Origin: Psychroflexus sp.
GTDB taxonomy: Bacteria; Bacteroidota; Bacteroidia; Flavobacteriales; Flavobacteriaceae
Assembly: GCA_051859645.1 (NCBI GenBank)
Contig: JBHYFG010000004.1
Coordinates: 102,014-166,013, forward strand
Reading direction: 5' to 3'
Length of the DNA: 64,000 nt
Shown here: positions 21,860 through 55,321 of the stretch, piece by piece
Numbering within the stretch: position 1 is the stretch's first letter
Layout: each line of letters begins with the position of its first letter
Notes under the pieces: generated by a model
Told to the model about the DNA's origin: nothing
Databases searched by the model: none
The model's input: the letters and a program-made list of their open reading frames with translations, nothing else
Program-made: the position numbers and the translations under genes

Positions 21860-23251
21860 TTACTTAACTAAATTGATTTCAACTCTTCTGTTTTGTTTTC
21901 TTCCTGCTTCAGTTTTGTTGTCAGCCACTGGTTTGTCTGGTCCGTACCCCTCTGAAGATAAACGAGCTTTATCAATTCCATTTTCAATTAAATAGTCCTT
22001 AACAGCTGCCGCTCTTTCCTTAGAAAGTCTTAGGTTTAGTTCTCTTCCTCCGGTGCTATCAGTATGCCCTTCAACAATAAATTTAGCGTTAGGGTACTCA
22101 TTTAATTTCGGGATTACTTTAGTATTAAGAATGTCTTTAGAGTAGTCTGTAATTCTAGCTTTTCCTGTTTCGAAGTTCAAGACTTTTGCAAATTCGTTTA
22201 ACTCTTTTTGCACTTCTTCAGTTACTTCTGGACAACCTTCGTTAGACGCTGGACCTGCTACCTCTGGACATTTGTCAAGGTGATCTGGTACGCCATCGCC
22301 ATCCGCATCAGGCCAAGGGCATCCATTATTTTCTTTTGGACCAGCTTCGTTTGGACACTTATCCAAATGGTCTGGAACTCCGTCGCCATCAGAATCTGGG
22401 CAACCTTCAAATTCTCCAGCTACTTCTGGACATTTATCTAAATGATCTGGAACACCATCGCCATCGGTATCTGGACAACCGTTAAATTCTGGCAAACCTG
22501 GTACATCTGGACAATCGTCTAAATGGTCAGGAATACCATCGCCGTCGGTATCTGGACATCCATTAAATTCTTTTAAGCCAGGTACATCAGGACACTCATC
22601 GTCTTTATCTGGAACTCCGTCTCCATCTCTGTCCGATCCGCCAAAAGCAAAACGAATACCAGCAGTGTGTTGAAATAAGCTCATATCTGCTCGCTCAAAA
22701 ACCTGCTTGTACGAAGACTCTATGGTTAGCGCAAGACGCTCAGAGAACCAGAAATTGAAACCTACACTAGTGTTAAATGTAGAAACACCTTTTCCGCCAT
22801 CTAACCAATAGTAACCAAGACCTGCACCAATATATGGGTCAAGCCATGTGTGTTCTTTCATAAATGAATTGAAACTGTAAATTAAATCGGCATCTAGCGC
22901 TATATAACTTTCGCTATCTGATAGCCTAGCTTTACCAATTTTGTCTATACGGTTGAAGCTAAATCCACCTCTAACGCTAAGGTTTTGACCAACGTAATAG
23001 CCCACTTGAATAGTAGACATTGCGGGAAAAAAATTCCAGTTTGAGGTGTCAAAATAATCTTGCATAAAGCGCTCGCTGGACATTTGAGGATTAAATAAGT
23101 TTGATTCGCCCCCTTTACCTGTTGGATAAAAGTCAACTGCATTTGTACCTATCATTACCGACCAACGATTAACTTCGTTTAACTGAGCAGTCATTTGAAA
23201 AGTTCCTAGAAGGAACATTAACACTGCAGAAATTTTAGTAATCATCTTCAT
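21860..23251 (-). CDS. OmpA-family outer membrane protein with TSP type-3 (Ca-binding) repeats
   Basis: N-terminal beta-barrel, repeated DxDGDGVPDxxDxCP, C-terminal VEGHTDS...LSKERA...NRRVEI. Confidence 0.93.
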
Positions 23252-32435: not shown

Positions 32436-32529
32436 TTACTTATTTAGAATTTAGCGGTACGAATCCAGTACAAAGTCACATTTTACATTTTTCATTTCAA
32501 ATTTCAAATTTCAAATTTCTCATTTTTAA

Positions 32530-32999
32530 CTTCTTTATTAGTAATTCAGTATTCGATATTTGTCTACTGTGATTCGTTGCTGGTTGTTCGTAAATCTATC
32601 GACCCGGTTATTTAAAATTTTTCACTTTTCAGTTCCCCCTCCCGTGCTGCTTGCGCTGAGTATAATCGAAGTGAGCTTAGTCGAAGTATCGAGGGTTTGG
32701 GGGGCTCATTTCAAATTTTTCATTTCACATTTTTCATTTCAAATTTCAAATTTCAAATTTTTCACTTCTTTATTCGTAATTCAGTATTCGATATTTGTCT
32801 ACTGTGATTCGTTGCTGGTTGTTCGTAAATCTATCGACCTGGTTATTTAAAATTTTTCACTTTTCAGTTCCCCCTCCCGTGCTGCTTGCGCTGAGTATAA
32901 TCGAAGTGAGCTTAGTCGAAGTATCGGGGGTTTGGGGGCCTCATTTTAAATTTCAAATTTTTCATTTCAAATTTTTCATTTCACATTTCTCACTTCTCA
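32530..32999. repeat. 235-bp tandem duplication (two near-identical copies)
   Basis: CTTCTTTATT at 32530 and 32765; few substitutions between copies; contains REP-like TGAGCTTAGTCGAAG and a C-run/G-run hairpin. Confidence 0.92.
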
Positions 33000-33243
33000 T
33001 CTCTCATTTCTCTTCTCATCTCTCATTTCTCTTCTCATCTCTCATTTCTCACTTCTCATCTCTCATTTCTCTTCTCATTTCTCTTCTCATTTTTCTTCTT
33101 CACTCTCCACTCTTCACTCTTCACTCTTCACACTTGACTCTTCACTCTTCACTCTTCACACTTCACACTTCACTCTTCACTCTTCACTCTTCACACTTCA
33201 CACTTCACACTTCACTCTTCACTCTTCACTCTTCACTCTTCTC
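32941..33243. repeat. Period-7 short tandem repeat array (TTTCAAA, CTCATTT, TTCACTC variants)
   Basis: Read directly; unit drifts along the array; similar short arrays at about 32480-32520 and 32708-32765. Confidence 0.92.
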
Positions 33244-33306
33244 ATCCCCTCTTGAGGGAAAAACGACGAGGGCGTGGGTTTTGGATAGAAAAACAAGTAG
33301 AATTTG

Positions 33307-40100: not shown

Positions 40101-40399
40101 TTTTAATTTTAGTTTTAATCGTTTGCACTACATGGTAATGGGCGGTTAAATTGAATGAACAACTCCAAAACTCTGCGTTTTTTATTGCAAGTGTGCGGAA
40201 TATGTACTGCTTCCAACGCCTTGCCTAGCAATTGATGCTCAACAAAACTAGCATTATAATCTGAATTTCTTGTTAAAAAACTGATTTTTATATAGCTTAT
40301 TTTTTTGTAAACTTTAGCATACTGAGGTGTTCATGCTTTTGTTTTAGGTAGGTTTATCAGTAAAAGGTGAATTGTTTTTCTAACGACATTCGTTCACAA

Positions 40400-40672
40400 A
40401 TGAAACACGTATGTTGAATAAAGAATATCGAATACTGAAATTAAAAGTGAAAATTTAAACTTTTGAAATGGTAAGTTTGAATTAATAAATTTGAACTTAT
40501 AAATTATACAGATGAAACACGTATGTTGAATAAAGAATATCAAATACTGAAATTAAAAGTGAAAATTTGAACTTTTGAAATGGTAAGTTTGAATTATTAA
40601 ATTTGAACTTATAAATTATACAGATGAAACACGCATGTTGAATAAAGAATATCGAATACTGAAATTAAAAGT
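40400..40672. repeat. 112-bp tandem repeat, two full copies plus a 49-bp partial copy
   Basis: ATGAAACACG at 40400, 40512, 40624; three substitutions between copies 1 and 2. Confidence 0.93.
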
Positions 40673-40733
40673 TGCATTTATTTGTTGAATCCGAGTTTTT
40701 TTTATTTAAATTTGGATAATAAATTACACTATC

Positions 40734-41840
40734 TTGAAAAAAGTTATTCTACCGTTTTTACTCCTTTCAGCTTTCTTAATTGCTTGCGAAAAAAAAGTAA
40801 AATCACCTCATAAAAAACAAACCTATGTGGCTTCGGTGACAAATTTAAGTACGCAATCGCCGTTTCATGAAGTACTTATTCAACAAGAAGACAGCCTTTG
40901 GAAGTACGACTTCTGGAACAATGAAAAATCGGTTGCTTTAGCTCATTTAGATTCCCAAACGGAAGAAGTAATTGTATTTTCTAACAAAGATTCGCTTGCT
41001 CCTTTCGAAAATTACACCCTGTTTGAAGACTTGCGCTTTTTTGTTCAGAACGAAGGTTTCAAAAGCTATGTAGCTACGCCAAAAGGAGCCTCTATTTCGA
41101 CTGAAGAATTTTTATCGCTTGTTGGCCAAGATTATTTTGAAACTTCTTTACATGCCAATAAAACACCAAACTCTTCTATAGAAATTAAAGAGAAAATTCA
41201 ATTTCAAGGAAATCGATGGGTTTATTTTTGGGAGTACTACTACCAAAATAAACTCCTTCATGCAGAAACAGAAGAAGTAGAACTTTCATTTTTTGAAGTA
41301 GATGCTCAACTTTTTCTTATCCCTTCTACGCAAGAAAATCCATACCCCATTTTTCAAGTAAAAAACGCAACACAAAACGAGATTGAGCTGGTTTACTTTA
41401 CCGATTTTGAAGCTAAAACAAAGCTATATTCCAAGGTTCAAAAAAGCACTTCAACAAACTACCAACCTTACAGTTTATGTAAAGACAGCTTTCAAAGTAC
41501 CTATTATTTTGGAGATGAAGTTCGCTATGCAAAAGGCTTAGACCACTTACTCAATTACCTTCAAGAAGGCGCTCCTAAAACTGAAAAAGATGCACTTATA
41601 AATGTACACTTTACGGTGAATTGCAATGGCGAAGTTGGAAAACTAGGTTTAGAAATCTTAGATAAAAACTACCAAAAAACAACCGTAAACCCTGAAATTA
41701 TAAAGCATATAACAGAAAAAATACTTCTGTTGAAGGATTGGGACAATCTAGAAAAGATAGACTACCGCGGTGCAAAAGACGCAAAATTGTTTTTTTTTAT
41801 CCGAGTTACTAACCAAAAAATTAACGAAGTATGTCCATAA
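40734..41840 (+). CDS. Hypothetical lipoprotein, C-terminus reminiscent of a TonB C-terminal domain
   Basis: Lipobox LIAC-EKK; INVHFTVNCNGEVG; TTG start. Confidence 0.7.
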   Translation: MKKVILPFLLLSAFLIACEKKVKSPHKKQTYVASVTNLSTQSPFHEVLIQQEDSLWKYDFWNNEKSVALAHLDSQTEEVIVFSNKDSLAPFENYTLFEDLRFFVQNEGFKSYVATPKGASISTEEFLSLVGQDYFETSLHANKTPNSSIEIKEKIQFQGNRWVYFWEYYYQNKLLHAETEEVELSFFEVDAQLFLIPSTQENPYPIFQVKNATQNEIELVYFTDFEAKTKLYSKVQKSTSTNYQPYSLCKDSFQSTYYFGDEVRYAKGLDHLLNYLQEGAPKTEKDALINVHFTVNCNGEVGKLGLEILDKNYQKTTVNPEIIKHITEKILLLKDWDNLEKIDYRGAKDAKLFFFIRVTNQKINEVCP

Positions 41841-42748
41841 CCAATAAGCTTTTATTCCTTTTAGTTGGTGTGCTAGTCGCTTGTTCAGAAAACGAGACTG
41901 ACCCTGCTACAGTGCAAGAAAAATCAATAGTTCAACGCATCAATATAGAGCAAATTCCGCTTCATGCACCTAAATTGGATTCACTAAAAAGTGACATCTC
42001 GTACGGAAAAGAATACGTAGATTTTTCATATAATTTCTTGCAAACTTCGCCCATAAAACGCCATTTAAACACTATAGGACTAGCCATAGACCCAAGCAAT
42101 ACAAGTTATATAGAACGTTTTTCGTACTCCTACAAAAAATCAGGAGAACACGAAAAAGCCATGCGTATATTATTGGCCTCTGTAGATGCCTCTCAAACAA
42201 ATGAAGAATTATTGGAACATTACAGTTACATGGCATGGAATTACCTCTATTTTTACAGAGATTACCACAATACCATTAAAATAGTAGACGAGATAATGCA
42301 ACTTTCAAACCATGATTTTGGTGCAAGTTGTCATGGAGAATCTTGCCTAATACTCAAAGGCCAAGCATTATACAAATCAGGAAAATTAGACGAAGCTATC
42401 GAAGTTTTTGAAGCTTACCAAACCCATGAAGAAAAGCAGGGCTTTAATGCAATGGATGACCCTTTACTTGTCTTTTACAAAGGTAGATGCTTGGCAGAAA
42501 AAGAAGAATATGAAAAGGCAATACCCTATTTCACTTACTTTACTCGCCACCAACCCAGCGCAGAAGCATACTTTCAGTTAGCACACCTTTTTTTACAACT
42601 CAATTTTAAAGAAGATGCTCGTCTTTACATTAACTTAGCAGAAGAGGCTTTACAAAACGGATACACCTTTAGAGAACCTTATTTTGAACGCTTCGATAAA
42701 GTTTTTATGCATCAAATTGAAGCCTTTGTCGCTAAAATGAATGAATAA
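41831..42748 (+). CDS. Tetratricopeptide-repeat lipoprotein
   Basis: Lipobox LVAC-SENE; TPR-like helices LKGQALYKSGKLDEAIEVF, YKGRCLAEKEEYEKAI. Confidence 0.78.
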   Translation: MSITNKLLFLLVGVLVACSENETDPATVQEKSIVQRINIEQIPLHAPKLDSLKSDISYGKEYVDFSYNFLQTSPIKRHLNTIGLAIDPSNTSYIERFSYSYKKSGEHEKAMRILLASVDASQTNEELLEHYSYMAWNYLYFYRDYHNTIKIVDEIMQLSNHDFGASCHGESCLILKGQALYKSGKLDEAIEVFEAYQTHEEKQGFNAMDDPLLVFYKGRCLAEKEEYEKAIPYFTYFTRHQPSAEAYFQLAHLFLQLNFKEDARLYINLAEEALQNGYTFREPYFERFDKVFMHQIEAFVAKMNE

Positions 42749-43466
42749 TTGAAGATGTAACTACCTCATTTGTAATTTGTTTAGTCGAAGAAAGTAAGCT
42801 TTCAAAATTAGATAATACGTAGTAATCGGTTTGCATAATATCGGTTCTGAATTCTTTTTGCAATACTTCCTCTACATTAAAATCCAAAAAATTGGCTTCC
42901 CCTTTATGAATTTGATTGGTTTCTCCGAAGGAAGATAAAATACCCGCTCCGTACGATTTTATTTTACCTCCTTCTTGAATTACACCAAACTCAATTGTGA
43001 ACCAATACAAGCGTTGCAATTCTTTTAGCAACCGCTTATTTCCTTTAACCGACGCGCCTAATTTTCCAAATTCGTATACAAAATCAGAAAAAACAGGCTG
43101 ACTTAATAAAGGGATATGCCCAAAAATGTCGTGAAACATATCGGGCTCTTCTAAGTAGTCTAAGCTATCTTTGGAACGTAACCAAGTAGAAGAACAGAAT
43201 TTTTTTTCAGCTAACAGCGAAAAGAAATCTTCGACTTCAATTAAGCCAGGAACTACTTCAATTTGCCATCCTGTGGAAGCTTCAAAAAAAGAATTAAGTG
43301 CTTCAAACTTTGGTAGGTTGTGTGCATTTAAAACTGGGCTCATTTCGTTTAAAGCCTTCAAATAAAGTGAAGAAGCTTTATCTTGAATGTTTGCTTCTTG
43401 TCGTTCAAAAAGGGTTTTCCAAACCCATTTGTCTTCTGTAGTGTAAGCCTCAAAATTTTGATTCAT
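42732..43466 (-). CDS. phhA: Phenylalanine 4-hydroxylase
   Basis: DYLEEPDMFHDIFGHIP (two His iron ligands), LYWFTIEFG (Glu ligand), YGAGILSSFGE. Confidence 0.95.
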   Translation of the reverse strand: MNQNFEAYTTEDKWVWKTLFERQEANIQDKASSLYLKALNEMSPVLNAHNLPKFEALNSFFEASTGWQIEVVPGLIEVEDFFSLLAEKKFCSSTWLRSKDSLDYLEEPDMFHDIFGHIPLLSQPVFSDFVYEFGKLGASVKGNKRLLKELQRLYWFTIEFGVIQEGGKIKSYGAGILSSFGETNQIHKGEANFLDFNVEEVLQKEFRTDIMQTDYYVLSNFESLLSSTKQITNEVVTSSIIHSF

Positions 43467-43658
43467 TTTTTTATTTTAGTTGTCATGCTGTCCAAAAGCT
43501 TCGGAATAAGCATCTCATATTTTTGTACTATTATTTTTCGTGTTTTTCGATGCGACAACTAGCTACGTTTTTTTTCTTAAAGAAAGACGTGTTGAAGGTG
43601 CTGCATCGCATTCCTTAATTATTTAGCGTGTTAACCATACACATTTACTTGTAAAATC

Positions 43659-43689
43659 AAAAAAGCCCGTTCTGGATAGAACAGGCTTT
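43659..43689 (-). terminator. Attenuator terminator upstream of phhA
   Basis: Minus-strand RNA AAAGCCUGUUCU-AUCC-AGAACGGGCUUUUUU; the single mismatch is a U-G wobble only on the minus strand. Confidence 0.85.
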
Positions 43690-43712
43690 AGTTTGGTATT
43701 AAACAATACGCA

Positions 43713-43772
43713 TTAGACTGTTCCTTTCCTAAAGAAAGTCCAATAATAATACATATGTTTTTTCGTGTTCAT
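43713..43772 (-). CDS. Aromatic-amino-acid leader peptide MNTKKHMYYYWTFFRKGTV
   Basis: Hand translated 19 codons + TAA; Y-Y-Y-W-T-F-F cluster; lies between a promoter box and a terminator. Confidence 0.82.
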   Translation of the reverse strand: MNTKKHMYYYWTFFRKGTV

Positions 43773-43776
43773 GCTG

Positions 43777-43784
43777 CAAAATTA
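43777..43784 (-). promoter_or_regulatory. -7 promoter box for leader/phhA transcript
   Basis: TAATTTTG on minus strand 4 nt before the leader ATG. Confidence 0.7.
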
Positions 43785-44118
43785 CAAGTCAGTTATTGGT
43801 TGACCGAGTCTTAAAAAAAATAAACATTTGTTTAACGCTTGTTGAAACAACAACTGGTATAACCTATTGGAATAAACGATTCAATTTTGTTGGTTTCATT
43901 TTAAATTCAATTGGTATTACAGTAATTTTCTTGTGTCGCTAAATTTCTAATCTTTTTAGCTTTGTTGGTATTGAGTTAAATTATTTAAACCAATTGTGTT
44001 AATCAATTCAAACTTTAATTTTGGAAAGGTTATTAAATTTGATTTTGCACAACTTAGCTTCAATTGATTTGAATTGTTGATCATGCTTGTGTGCTTGTTT
44101 GTTGTTCAGGTAAAAGTC

Positions 44119-45279
44119 TTACAACTTGCCCACAATAAGGCTCACCGCATTCCCGCCAAATCCAACGGCATTGACCATGATATGTTGTAAATTTTTGTCG
44201 GTGTTTTCTTGTTGAAAAAATGGATTTGGAATAAATTTATTATGCTTCAACATGAGCAATGCCATCTCCAAACTCATCGCTCCTGAAGCTCCGAAAGAAT
44301 GTCCTATTTTCCACTTGTTGGTGGTAATCAAAGGAACTTCTTCAAAACAATGTTGTATAGCTTTTAGCTCTGCTTCATCTCCTTTTTGTGTTCCTGCGGC
44401 ATGCATAACAATCGCATCTACTGAGGTTAATCCTGCGTTATCCAATGCCATTTGCATACTCTTCTGAAAACAGATTGCTTCACTTGAAATGGAGGTATTA
44501 TGAGTGATTATTTCGGTAGCAAAGCCAACACCTAATAGAGAAAACAAAGCTTTTTCTTTTTTTGTTGAAAGTAGAAATACAGCCGCCGCTTCACCTAAAA
44601 TAAGCGTATTCGATTTTTTTGAAAAGTCTAAACTTCTACAAGGTAAATTGCTTTTTGAAGAAGAATAAAGTTTCAAGGCCTTCATTTGAGCTACGGTAAA
44701 AGGGGTTAGTGGCGCTTCAGTACCTCCTACTAAAAAATCCGCTGCCATGCCTGAAGTTAGCCATGCGACGGCATTCAATATGCTATGCAAAGCCGTTGAA
44801 CACGTTATGGAATGAGACATACTCAATCCATCCGAGCCTAAATCCTGCGCTACCCAAGAAGATAAATTCCCTAAGGTGGTGGTGGGCGAACTCAGCGTAC
44901 TTGCTACTGTTGAAGCTAAAAATTCTTTGTGATAGGCTTCAAATAAAGTGGTTGCTCCCCTGGAAGAGCCAATGTTTACGGCTAAGTTTTGAGGAGTTTT
45001 ATCCTTCAATAACTGCCGACTTGCAAAAATTGCATACAGCACAGAAGGGTCTAATTCTTTGTATTTTTTGTTTTCTTCTCTAAGGTTTTCAATAAGCTCA
45101 CATTCCTTCTTTTGAAGTTGACTCACCCACTCTTCTTTTCCTGAAAATTCTTGTTTTTGAAAAAAAGCTTTTGGATCAAGGTAAGCATTCCACACATCTT
45201 CTTCAGAGGAACCTAAAGAAGAAATAGAAGCAAATGAATGGATATATATTTTTTTGCGCAATGGTCTATTTTTTTGCAA
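44119..45279 (-). CDS. Beta-ketoacyl-ACP synthase (FabF/KS-like)
   Basis: Cys-His-His triad: ITCSTALH, MHAAGT, KIGHSFG; GEAAAVF, NAVGFGGN. Confidence 0.85.
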   Translation of the reverse strand: MQKNRPLRKKIYIHSFASISSLGSSEEDVWNAYLDPKAFFQKQEFSGKEEWVSQLQKKECELIENLREENKKYKELDPSVLYAIFASRQLLKDKTPQNLAVNIGSSRGATTLFEAYHKEFLASTVASTLSSPTTTLGNLSSWVAQDLGSDGLSMSHSITCSTALHSILNAVAWLTSGMAADFLVGGTEAPLTPFTVAQMKALKLYSSSKSNLPCRSLDFSKKSNTLILGEAAAVFLLSTKKEKALFSLLGVGFATEIITHNTSISSEAICFQKSMQMALDNAGLTSVDAIVMHAAGTQKGDEAELKAIQHCFEEVPLITTNKWKIGHSFGASGAMSLEMALLMLKHNKFIPNPFFQQENTDKNLQHIMVNAVGFGGNAVSLIVGKL

Positions 45280-55072: not shown

Positions 55073-55202
55073 GTGTATTAATTATCCTGTATTTTAGCAG
55101 ATATACCCGCTTCACTCTTCACCTTACTTATATCACATTCAGGCTTTTTTATTCAGTATTGAGTAAGAACCGCAGAGACGCAAAGAAAGCAAAGATATTA
55201 TT

Positions 55203-55321
55203 TCTCTTCTCACTCTTCACTCCTCACTCCTCACTCATCACTCATCACTCATCACTCATCACTCCTCACTCTTCACTCTTCACTCACTTTTCATTCCCCC
55301 TTTGGGGGCTAGGGGGCCTCA
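55203..55321. repeat. Period-7 array (TCACTCA/TTCACTC) followed by CCCCCTTTGGGGGCTAGGGGGCCTCA
   Basis: Read directly between gmk stop and nadD start; flanks match 32861-32943. Confidence 0.9.

Follow-up and report, generated by a model that had tools for sequence, protein, structure and literature searches.

The phenylalanine 4-hydroxylase gene phhA in a 64,000-nt stretch of Psychroflexus sp. DNA (contig JBHYFG010000004.1, positions 102,014 to 166,013; this whole stretch is called the window below) is preceded by what is probably a ribosome-mediated transcription attenuator, which would sense charged tRNA-Tyr through a run of Tyr codons in a short leader peptide and control phhA. We put the probability of this reading at about 0.82. 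Comparison with related loci indicates that a predicted attenuator family of the same kind precedes roughly four fifths of the sampled phhA genes (about 120 of about 150 loci), which suggests that a Tyr-specific leader-peptide attenuator acting on phhA, or on phhA together with phhB, is genuine and conserved across many lineages, and it seems not to have been described before. The mechanism is a textbook one; what is new is the sensed amino acid, the regulated enzyme and the leaderless arrangement, and the advance is therefore one of scope and physiology. An earlier reading of the window by itself, called here the original prediction, had proposed ribosome-mediated attenuation in which stalling frees the segment GGAACAG at the end of the leader. 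Evidence for that proposal comes from conservation and covariation, from geometry and constrained folding, and from gene context and the transcripts of a relative.

Parts of the proposed attenuator

All attenuator elements and phhA itself lie on the minus strand, here in window coordinates:

43784-43777, minus strand: -7 promoter box TAATTTTG (TAnnTTTG, Bacteroidota-type)
43713..43772, minus strand: leader open reading frame (ORF), 19 codons plus stop, MNTKKHMYYYWTFFRKGTV, with a predicted 5' untranslated region of 0-1 nt (leaderless)
43733..43760, minus strand: region 1, 5' strand of hairpin P1 (Tyr/Trp codons and the next codons), from the minimum free energy fold
43740..43751, minus strand: regulatory codons UAU UAU UAU UGG (Tyr8-Tyr10, Trp11), proposed ribosome stall site
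43701..43729, minus strand: region 2, 3' strand of P1 (end of the ORF and 15 nt past the stop)
43725-43714, minus strand: antiterminator strand GGAACAGUCU within region 2, codons 17-19 and stop
43689-43662, minus strand: terminator stem AAAGCCTGTTCT/AGAACGGGCTTT, 12 bp, loop ATCC, followed by a T-tract to 43656
43678..43689, minus strand: region 3, terminator 5' arm AAAGCCUGUUCU, alternative partner of region 2
43656..43677, minus strand: terminator loop AUCC, 3' arm AGAACGGGCUUU (region 4) and U-tract
43467..43655, minus strand: spacer between attenuator and phhA, about 190 nt, unusually long
42732..43466, minus strand: phhA, phenylalanine 4-hydroxylase, 244 aa, proposed regulated gene, monocistronic here (Pfam Biopterin_H, E 1e-43)

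The TAATTTTG box is the sole perfect TAnnTTTG on the minus strand between phhA and its upstream gene, and four nucleotides (CAGC) separate it from the leader ATG at 43772-43770. The leader reads AUG AAC ACG AAA AAA CAU AUG UAU UAU UAU UGG ACU UUC UUU AGG AAA GGA ACA GUC UAA, with its stop TAA at 43715-43713 and aromatic residues at six of the seven positions of the segment YYYWTFF. An A/U-rich spacer of about 23 nt lies between the leader stop and the terminator stem. GGAACAG (43724-43718) can pair with CUGUUCU (43684-43678) of the terminator 5' arm, and with CU:AG included this 2:3 duplex has nine pairs and a stability of -10.3 kcal/mol. The 122-nt leader RNA folds into two hairpins, P1 (1:2) and the terminator (3:4), at -35.5 kcal/mol (z = -5.9; none of 200 shuffles was as stable). 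The box with an ATG four nucleotides later, the 19-codon ORF with six aromatic codons in seven positions, the stem and T-tract about 190 nt before phhA and the complementarity of GGAACAG to CUGUUC(U) had all been described in the original prediction, and each was confirmed.

In the proposed course of events transcription would start 4-5 nt past the TAATTTTG box, with the leader AUG at or next to the 5' end, and a ribosome would translate the 19-codon leader. With Tyr-tRNA plentiful the ribosome would reach the stop codon and cover GGAACAGUCU, the terminator (3:4) would form and transcription would end about 115 nt from its start. With Tyr-tRNA (possibly also Trp-tRNA) scarce, stalling on UAU-UAU-UAU-UGG would melt P1 (1:2) and leave region 2 free beyond the ribosome footprint; the freed region 2 would pair with the terminator 5' arm (2:3), and RNA polymerase would read through the spacer into phhA. 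If the leader were not translated, P1 would sequester region 2 and termination would be expected. It is established enzymology that PhhA makes Tyr from Phe, so the circuit would amount to product-limited induction, with PhhA as a tyrosine-supply enzyme. The attenuator features found in silico are an ORF with tandem codons, an intrinsic terminator, mutually exclusive 1:2, 2:3 and 3:4 pairings, a fitting ribosome spacing and a match between gene and amino acid; from these we infer the start site, the translation of the leader, the stalling and the direction of the response.

Conservation of the leader and its structures

Two sets of phhA loci were compared, and single loci are cited by number (L012 and so on). 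The genome set comprised 80 loci from one-genome-per-species Bacteroidota assemblies, mostly Flavobacteriales (Psychroflexus, Planktosalinus, Flavobacterium gelidilacus, Crocinitomicaceae/Fluviicola and Vicingaceae) plus a few Saprospiraceae; PhhA in these loci is at most 73% identical to that of the window, and the source genome itself is therefore absent from this set. The metagenome set comprised 80 further, independent loci from metagenome contigs. The 250 nt upstream of phhA were searched for ATG-initiated ORFs of 12-30 codons with at least three Tyr within six residues, which was done for 78 genome and 74 metagenome loci. Such an ORF was present before 53 of the 78 and 52 of the 74 genes, against 0 of 78 and 7 of 74 in the reverse-complement controls and 2 of 1383 random 250-nt windows taken from the genome-set loci. 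The seven matches in the metagenome control may come from the 3' strand of P1 being complementary to Tyr codons. A covariance model, R1, built from 52 genome-set leaders with their terminators, matched the window element at 43657-43772 with 63.9 bits (E 1.5e-7), and gave matches immediately before phhA in both sets, about 58 in the independent metagenome set and 60 in the genome set, from part of which it had been trained. The survey of phhA upstream regions proposed in the original prediction thus returned both conserved aromatic-rich small ORFs (sORFs) and the covarying stems described below.

A chance ORF beside an ordinary terminator, or an unrelated small-protein or small-RNA gene, would produce some of what is seen in the window, since a 19-codon ORF and TAnnTTTG are individually common in AT-rich DNA, but some 120 of roughly 150 phhA loci, drawn from several Bacteroidota families, share the position and the arrangement, and with controls near zero this makes the explanation extremely improbable. 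Within the reach of sequence analysis, the comparative data refute a chance arrangement.

Typical leaders of the relatives read MLNTKTYYYYYRLLNNRIG, MKNLNNTYYYYPILTRRIGQ, MQMHNTYYYYSLHLGELDL and MKRKNTYYYYLNSTP, and the peptide closest to that of the window is MILLTSNNYYYWTTCKGTV in L012. Among 91 distinct leader peptides the Tyr run is the only conserved part: Tyr occupies its positions 1, 2 and 3 in 100, 95 and 89% of the peptides, the run most often begins at codon 7, and 19 codons is the commonest leader length. Other aromatic residues are sporadic (F 41, W 17). The Tyr codons vary synonymously (UAU:UAC = 280:60), and every run shares its reading frame with an ATG located 6-9 codons before it and with a stop overlapping region 2. 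Taken together, the conserved run, the synonymous variation and the fixed frame from ATG to stop point to translation, beyond RNA structure.

This bears on the alternative that a protein, an uncharged tRNA or a small molecule works the switch instead of a ribosome, the UAU repeats being only a strand of P1. The Tyr codons do form the 5' strand of P1, and their conservation may consequently be in part structural. Against such a switch stand the frame of the run, the stop placed over region 2, the UAU/UAC alternation and the placement of the -7 box, which puts the ATG at the 5' end. No T-box or other riboswitch family scores in Rfam: the window and 20 related loci gave no matches at gathering thresholds, the leader families Bacteroid-trp, Phe_leader, Thr_leader, His_leader and Trp_leader included, and a T-box match was absent from 43350-44250 at E up to 10. 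The best Rfam score was that of the trpB ncRNA motif (RF04312), 34.4 against a gathering threshold of 59 bits, at 43653-43746 on the minus strand, over a hairpin and terminator; this match comes mainly from the terminator and the phhA element is not a member of that family. Thr_leader reached 28 of the 55 bits needed. Furthermore, R1 cross-matched a His leader with the run HHHH, MNFIKLHHHHFYICPQAK, before hisG (L129:1983-2106) and a W-rich Trp leader, MNNYTQNNTWLWQTKSPLGFSW, before trpE (L092:2223-2351), both a few hundred nucleotides downstream of phhA and built like the Tyr leader. These leaders of the same genomes serve as an internal control for the connection between Tyr run and phhA. We consider a switch worked by something other than the ribosome very unlikely.

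The structures are conserved along with the peptide. A terminator of -12 to -23 kcal/mol, starting 25-35 nt past the leader stop, was found in all of 56 curated leaders, and compensatory changes occur in 10 of 10 terminator pairs predicted on one alignment (A1) and in 10 of 11 on another (A2). For the metagenome set, 86.5% of P1 and terminator cells were paired against 71.6% after shuffling, the covariation score was 0.48 against 0.21 shuffled and at most 0.12 with slid partners, and double changes were seen in all seven pairs of the upper P1 helices; this alignment was fitted to the model and its figures therefore lean towards structure. Without any alignment, the stability of P1 had a mean z of -2.8 relative to mononucleotide shuffles, with 44 of 56 leaders below -2. 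Almost all members have, just ahead of the leader stop or extending into it, 7-10 nt that resemble the terminator 3' arm and can therefore pair with the 5' arm. Region 2 and the terminator 5' arm change together across lineages (region 2 is given first):

window: GGAACAG and CUGUUCU
Psychroflexus: GAAUCGG and CCGAUUC
Fluviicola-like: GAACUGG and CCGGUUC
L012: GGGAAC and GUUCCU
L045: AGAACUGAG and CUCGGUUC
L067: GGAAGUCGG and CCGGCUUC

With one representative for each distinct 8-nt arm core (41 cores from 108 attenuators), the cognate 2:3 duplexes had a mean of -10.8 kcal/mol and the non-cognate ones -8.0; the observed cognate value was reached in none of 20000 permutations.

Some loci of the collection are unusual in other respects. 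The phhA of L035 (3001-3285 and the next ORF) is seemingly split into 94 and 132 aa behind an intact Tyr leader, which suggests a frameshift, a pseudogene or an assembly error. L059 (CP034120.1), titled Glaciecola amylolytica, carries a Bacteroidota-type leader, MNKHMHISTYYYAFLNPGTE, the same as in the metagenome contigs L125, L132 and L139 and very close to that of a Fluviicola metagenome-assembled genome (MAG), L055. Two MAGs titled Actinomyces viscosus and Comamonadaceae (L042, L044) carry Flavobacteriales-like phhA. These mismatches between title and content suggest mislabelling, binning errors or gene transfer.

Ribosome geometry, promoter and transcripts

A ribosome protects roughly 10-13 nt downstream of its A site. 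The distance from the last Tyr codon to the start of region 2 has a median of 14 nt (12-17 nt for the 10-90% range), so that region 2 begins just beyond the footprint of a stalled ribosome. Its other end lies some 2 nt short of the last base of the stop codon, and a terminating ribosome therefore covers it. The nascent transcript up to the terminator loop was folded under three conditions, an antiterminator being scored when at least five pairs formed onto the 5' arm:

ribosome on the last Tyr codon: antiterminator in 107 of 108 elements; nine pairs in the window
no ribosome: antiterminator in 28 of 108 elements; no pairs in the window
ribosome at the stop codon: antiterminator in 10 of 108 elements; no pairs in the window

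In these models, folding and geometry correspond to the classical four-segment logic of the trp type. The two Phe codons of the window leader (ORF nt 37-42) lie only 6 nt before region 2, and a ribosome stalled there would partly mask the antiterminator strand; by this footprint geometry they are probably not productive sensors. The sensing codons in the window would be Tyr8-10 and perhaps Trp11. Sensing of Tyr, Trp and Phe had been predicted originally; the Tyr part stands, given the conservation of the run, and the Phe part probably does not, with its codons too near region 2 and with F and W only sporadic among the leaders.

The same results bear on the opposite polarity, in which stalling at aromatic codons would promote termination and phhA would be a catabolic gene induced by plentiful Tyr or Phe. 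The phhA of Pseudomonas is indeed induced by Phe and Tyr and catabolic (PMC1173090), and ribosomes on the two Phe codons of the window would partly cover region 2. Stalling on Tyr, however, favoured the antiterminator in nearly every folded element and a ribosome at the stop favoured the terminator, and the catabolic genes hpd and hmgA were not seen next to phhA in the loci examined, phhB or trp and DAHP synthase (DAHPS) genes being adjacent instead. Opposite polarity therefore has a very slight probability.

To our knowledge, Bacteroidota do not use Shine-Dalgarno initiation. A perfect TAnnTTTG is present upstream of the leader ATG in 41 of the 56 curated leaders; in 34 the gap between box and ATG measures 4-9 nt, most often the 4 nt that the window shows, and several other leaders have a box with one mismatch at the same position. 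The window contains 107 copies of TAnnTTTG against 99 expected, and the evidential value of the box thus comes from its conserved position, not from enrichment. TAnnTTTG has been described as the sigma-A -7 box of flavobacteria, and leaderless mRNAs make up 5.5% of the 890 mRNAs analysed in F. psychrophilum (PMC9723704). With the centre of the box some 7 nt upstream of the transcription start, the leader AUG would be at the 5' end or within a few nucleotides of it. The mRNA had been predicted to be nearly leaderless, and the conserved distance of 4-9 nt between box and ATG is in accordance with this.

Sequence of the source organism was matched in one isolate-like DNA run, and related strains were matched in soda-lake metagenomes; a search for RNA runs gave no match. 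Transcripts could be followed in a relative, a marine Flavobacteriales contig (L104) whose PhhA is 54% identical to that of the window, with the following layout:

1060-1067: -7 box
1074: leader ATG
1155-1183: terminator
1201: phhA ATG

Contigs from seven of eight marine metatranscriptomes have their first base at 1083-1107, 9-33 nt downstream of the leader ATG and within the leader ORF, and extend across the terminator into phhA. The region 980-1082 was not covered by contigs in any of the eight, and transcripts of the divergent upstream gene end at 962-979. In this relative the phhA mRNA begins at the leader or close to it and includes the attenuator.

Several observations weigh against attenuation by a Tyr-sensing ribosome, at least for the window copy. 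The transcripts of L104 are assembled contigs without strand or local depth, from a relative only 54% identical in PhhA, and contigs of this kind cannot reveal a short terminated RNA or quantify attenuation. When 2:3 pairing is counted by alignment column, it amounts to 70.4% against 68.8% shuffled for one register; the alignment splits into two registers and neither is clearly above the shuffles. The antiterminator (about -10 kcal/mol) is weaker than the window terminator (-15.9 kcal/mol), and the switch must therefore work kinetically, like classical attenuators. Finally, the phhA ATG of the window (43466) lies 195 nt past the terminator stem, this distance being 13-59 nt in 54 of the 56 curated relatives, with the window and L028 (252 nt) as the exceptions; a second phhA promoter within the window spacer may exist.

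The last point raises the question whether the attenuator family is real and the window copy is decoupled, with phhA transcribed from a promoter in the 195-nt insertion and the leader RNA being a dead end or a minor contribution. Apart from the length of the spacer, a degenerate box-like GCTTTTG about 35 nt before the phhA ATG fits such an arrangement. However, the window copy has kept an intact leader ORF, P1, antiterminator and terminator and still scores 63.9 bits, and the spacer has no perfect TAnnTTTG on the minus strand. L028 and L114 also keep intact attenuators with spacers of 230-250 nt, and long spacers therefore seem to be tolerated. Decoupling is for these reasons unlikely, and a Tyr-responsive attenuator acting on phhA is our preferred reading for the window copy as well.

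Long spacers with an intact attenuator are found in three unrelated members, the window, L028 (2757-3000) and L114 (968-1200, about 234 nt). Within the window spacer there was no significant fold (z = -0.26), no repeat with copies elsewhere in the window and no notable ORF. Relatives with more than 75% PhhA identity to the window were absent from the genome and metagenome collections, and the metatranscriptome contigs that matched the long-spacer locus L028 were few and came from divergent or rearranged strains.

Tyrosine supply, known systems and other observations

The closest solved relatives of PhhA are 2v27/2v28 and 1ltu, deposited as bacterial phenylalanine 4-hydroxylases (E about 2e-50). 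In many leader-bearing loci a Pterin_4a gene (phhB, 80-88 aa) overlaps the 3' end of phhA by 3-24 nt, and the attenuator would therefore control phhAB there; examples are L017:3723-3965 and L049:3689-3955, the latter with an overlap of about 47 nt. In the window phhB is not adjacent to phhA, and a convergent TPR gene (41831-42748) lies downstream. Two loci in which no leader was detected before phhA have the gene in a biosynthetic setting by Pfam: L064 (421-5506) reads trpC-trpF-trpB-phhA-trpA-DAHP synthase with overlapping stops and starts, and L080 (307-3720) reads trpB-trpA-DAHPS, then 73 nt, then phhA. The codon logic of the leader, these operon partners and the biosynthetic embedding in leader-less loci support PhhA as a tyrosine-supply enzyme, as had been suggested from the codon run, although this role is read from gene content and sequence.

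It had also been suggested that the leader is a relic of a former aro or trp operon. This does not agree with a leader tied to phhA in about 120 loci, and the idea was rejected since it is in the trp/DAHPS operons of L064 and L080 that the leader before phhA is missing.

More tentatively, PhhA-PhhB could be a Tyr-starvation-induced biosynthetic module in many Flavobacteriales and neighbouring Bacteroidota, maybe their main or only route to Tyr, and its leader the first natural Tyr-specific attenuator, leaderless besides; we regard this wider proposal as possible but doubtful. If PhhA were the main or only route, tyrosine synthesis would depend on oxygen and pterin. PhhA would become a product-regulated source of Tyr, and not a catabolic enzyme, in many marine, freshwater and saline-lake Bacteroidota, and this would affect metabolic reconstructions and predictions of auxotrophy for abundant members of the phylum. 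Tyrosine would be added to the specificities of leader-peptide attenuators, and the roughly 120 members of the family could enter a curated collection such as Rfam. The spacing of 4-9 nt between box and ATG suggests that the leader is translated from a leaderless mRNA, which would offer a small natural model for initiation on such mRNAs and for the coupling of transcription to translation, and the element could possibly be used as a natural Tyr-tRNA-responsive genetic part.

Among known systems, trpL-trpEDCBA, pheL-pheA and hisL share with the phhA leader the tandem codons for the controlled amino acid, the 1:2, 2:3 and 3:4 hairpins, the terminator before the structural gene and a stop placed so that the terminating ribosome masks segment 2. 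In contrast to them, the phhA leader would sense Tyr, its gene is a hydroxylase interconverting two amino acids and not an operon of the chorismate pathway, and it has a Bacteroidota -7/-33 promoter with a predicted leaderless mRNA. Leaders of the same build are known from the same phylum, namely Bacteroid-trp of Rfam and those of pheA, ilvE and trp described for the transcriptome of F. psychrophilum (PMC9723704, SI D8-D9, Table S7). The pheA leader of that species, MNTNNTFYSNNSFYFYWNIGRDCYMVI, is likewise aromatic-rich and followed by a terminator (PMC9723704). These leaders control trpE and following genes, pheA-aspC and ilvE through mixed F/Y/W, W or I codons, whereas the phhA leader has a nearly pure Tyr run and is tied to phhA or phhAB. 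F. psychrophilum itself has a long, 584-aa form of phhA with a start site 20 nt before the start codon, and it is not among the reported leaders (PMC9723704).

Outside the phylum, the aroR leader of C. glutamicum (Phe-Tyr-Phe; Neshat et al. 2014), which precedes aroF, is summarized in a review (PMC11802643). As described there, it resembles the phhA leader in having a Tyr codon and in attenuating a gene of the aromatic pathway, but it responds to Phe and not to Tyr, has one Tyr codon and belongs to another phylum and gene. Pseudomonas phhABC (PhhR/TyrR) has the same PhhA/PhhB pair as here; it is driven by a sigma-54 activator, Phe/Tyr-induced and catabolic (PMC1173090), in contrast to the RNA switch predicted here to respond to a shortage of Tyr-tRNA. 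A review of the TyrA family that deals with phhA as well as with attenuation mentions attenuators in front of tyrA operons only (PMC1173090). In the open-access full-text literature no description of a Tyr-run leader or of phhA attenuation was found, and Rfam has none.

A second leaderless-looking sORF followed by a terminator was observed just upstream of the phhA leader in L138 (264-382), L141 (262-383) and L061 (416-533). It reads MKTIKHITKRTIILIN (MKTIKHITKRTLILLNKN in L061) and precedes a 201-aa 4HBT thioesterase gene; in L138, where the box was checked, TATCTTTG stands 4 nt before its ATG. It could be a leader of the Ile/Thr type or an R1 look-alike (E 3e-4 to 1e-3).

The window also contains other repeats. 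Long degenerate tandem arrays of 7/14 nt (TTCACTC / TTTCAAA-like) are found at 32459-33273 and 55188-55313, together with a 235-nt duplication at 32476-32945; part of this repeated sequence recurs in reverse complement at 40424-40505. At 40396-40731 a 112-nt unit is present three times in tandem, the second and third copies being 96% and 63% identical to the first, directly upstream of an ORF starting at 40734. Four to five in-frame-looking repeats of 75-87 nt at 22230-22627 are probably a repeated protein domain within a gene.

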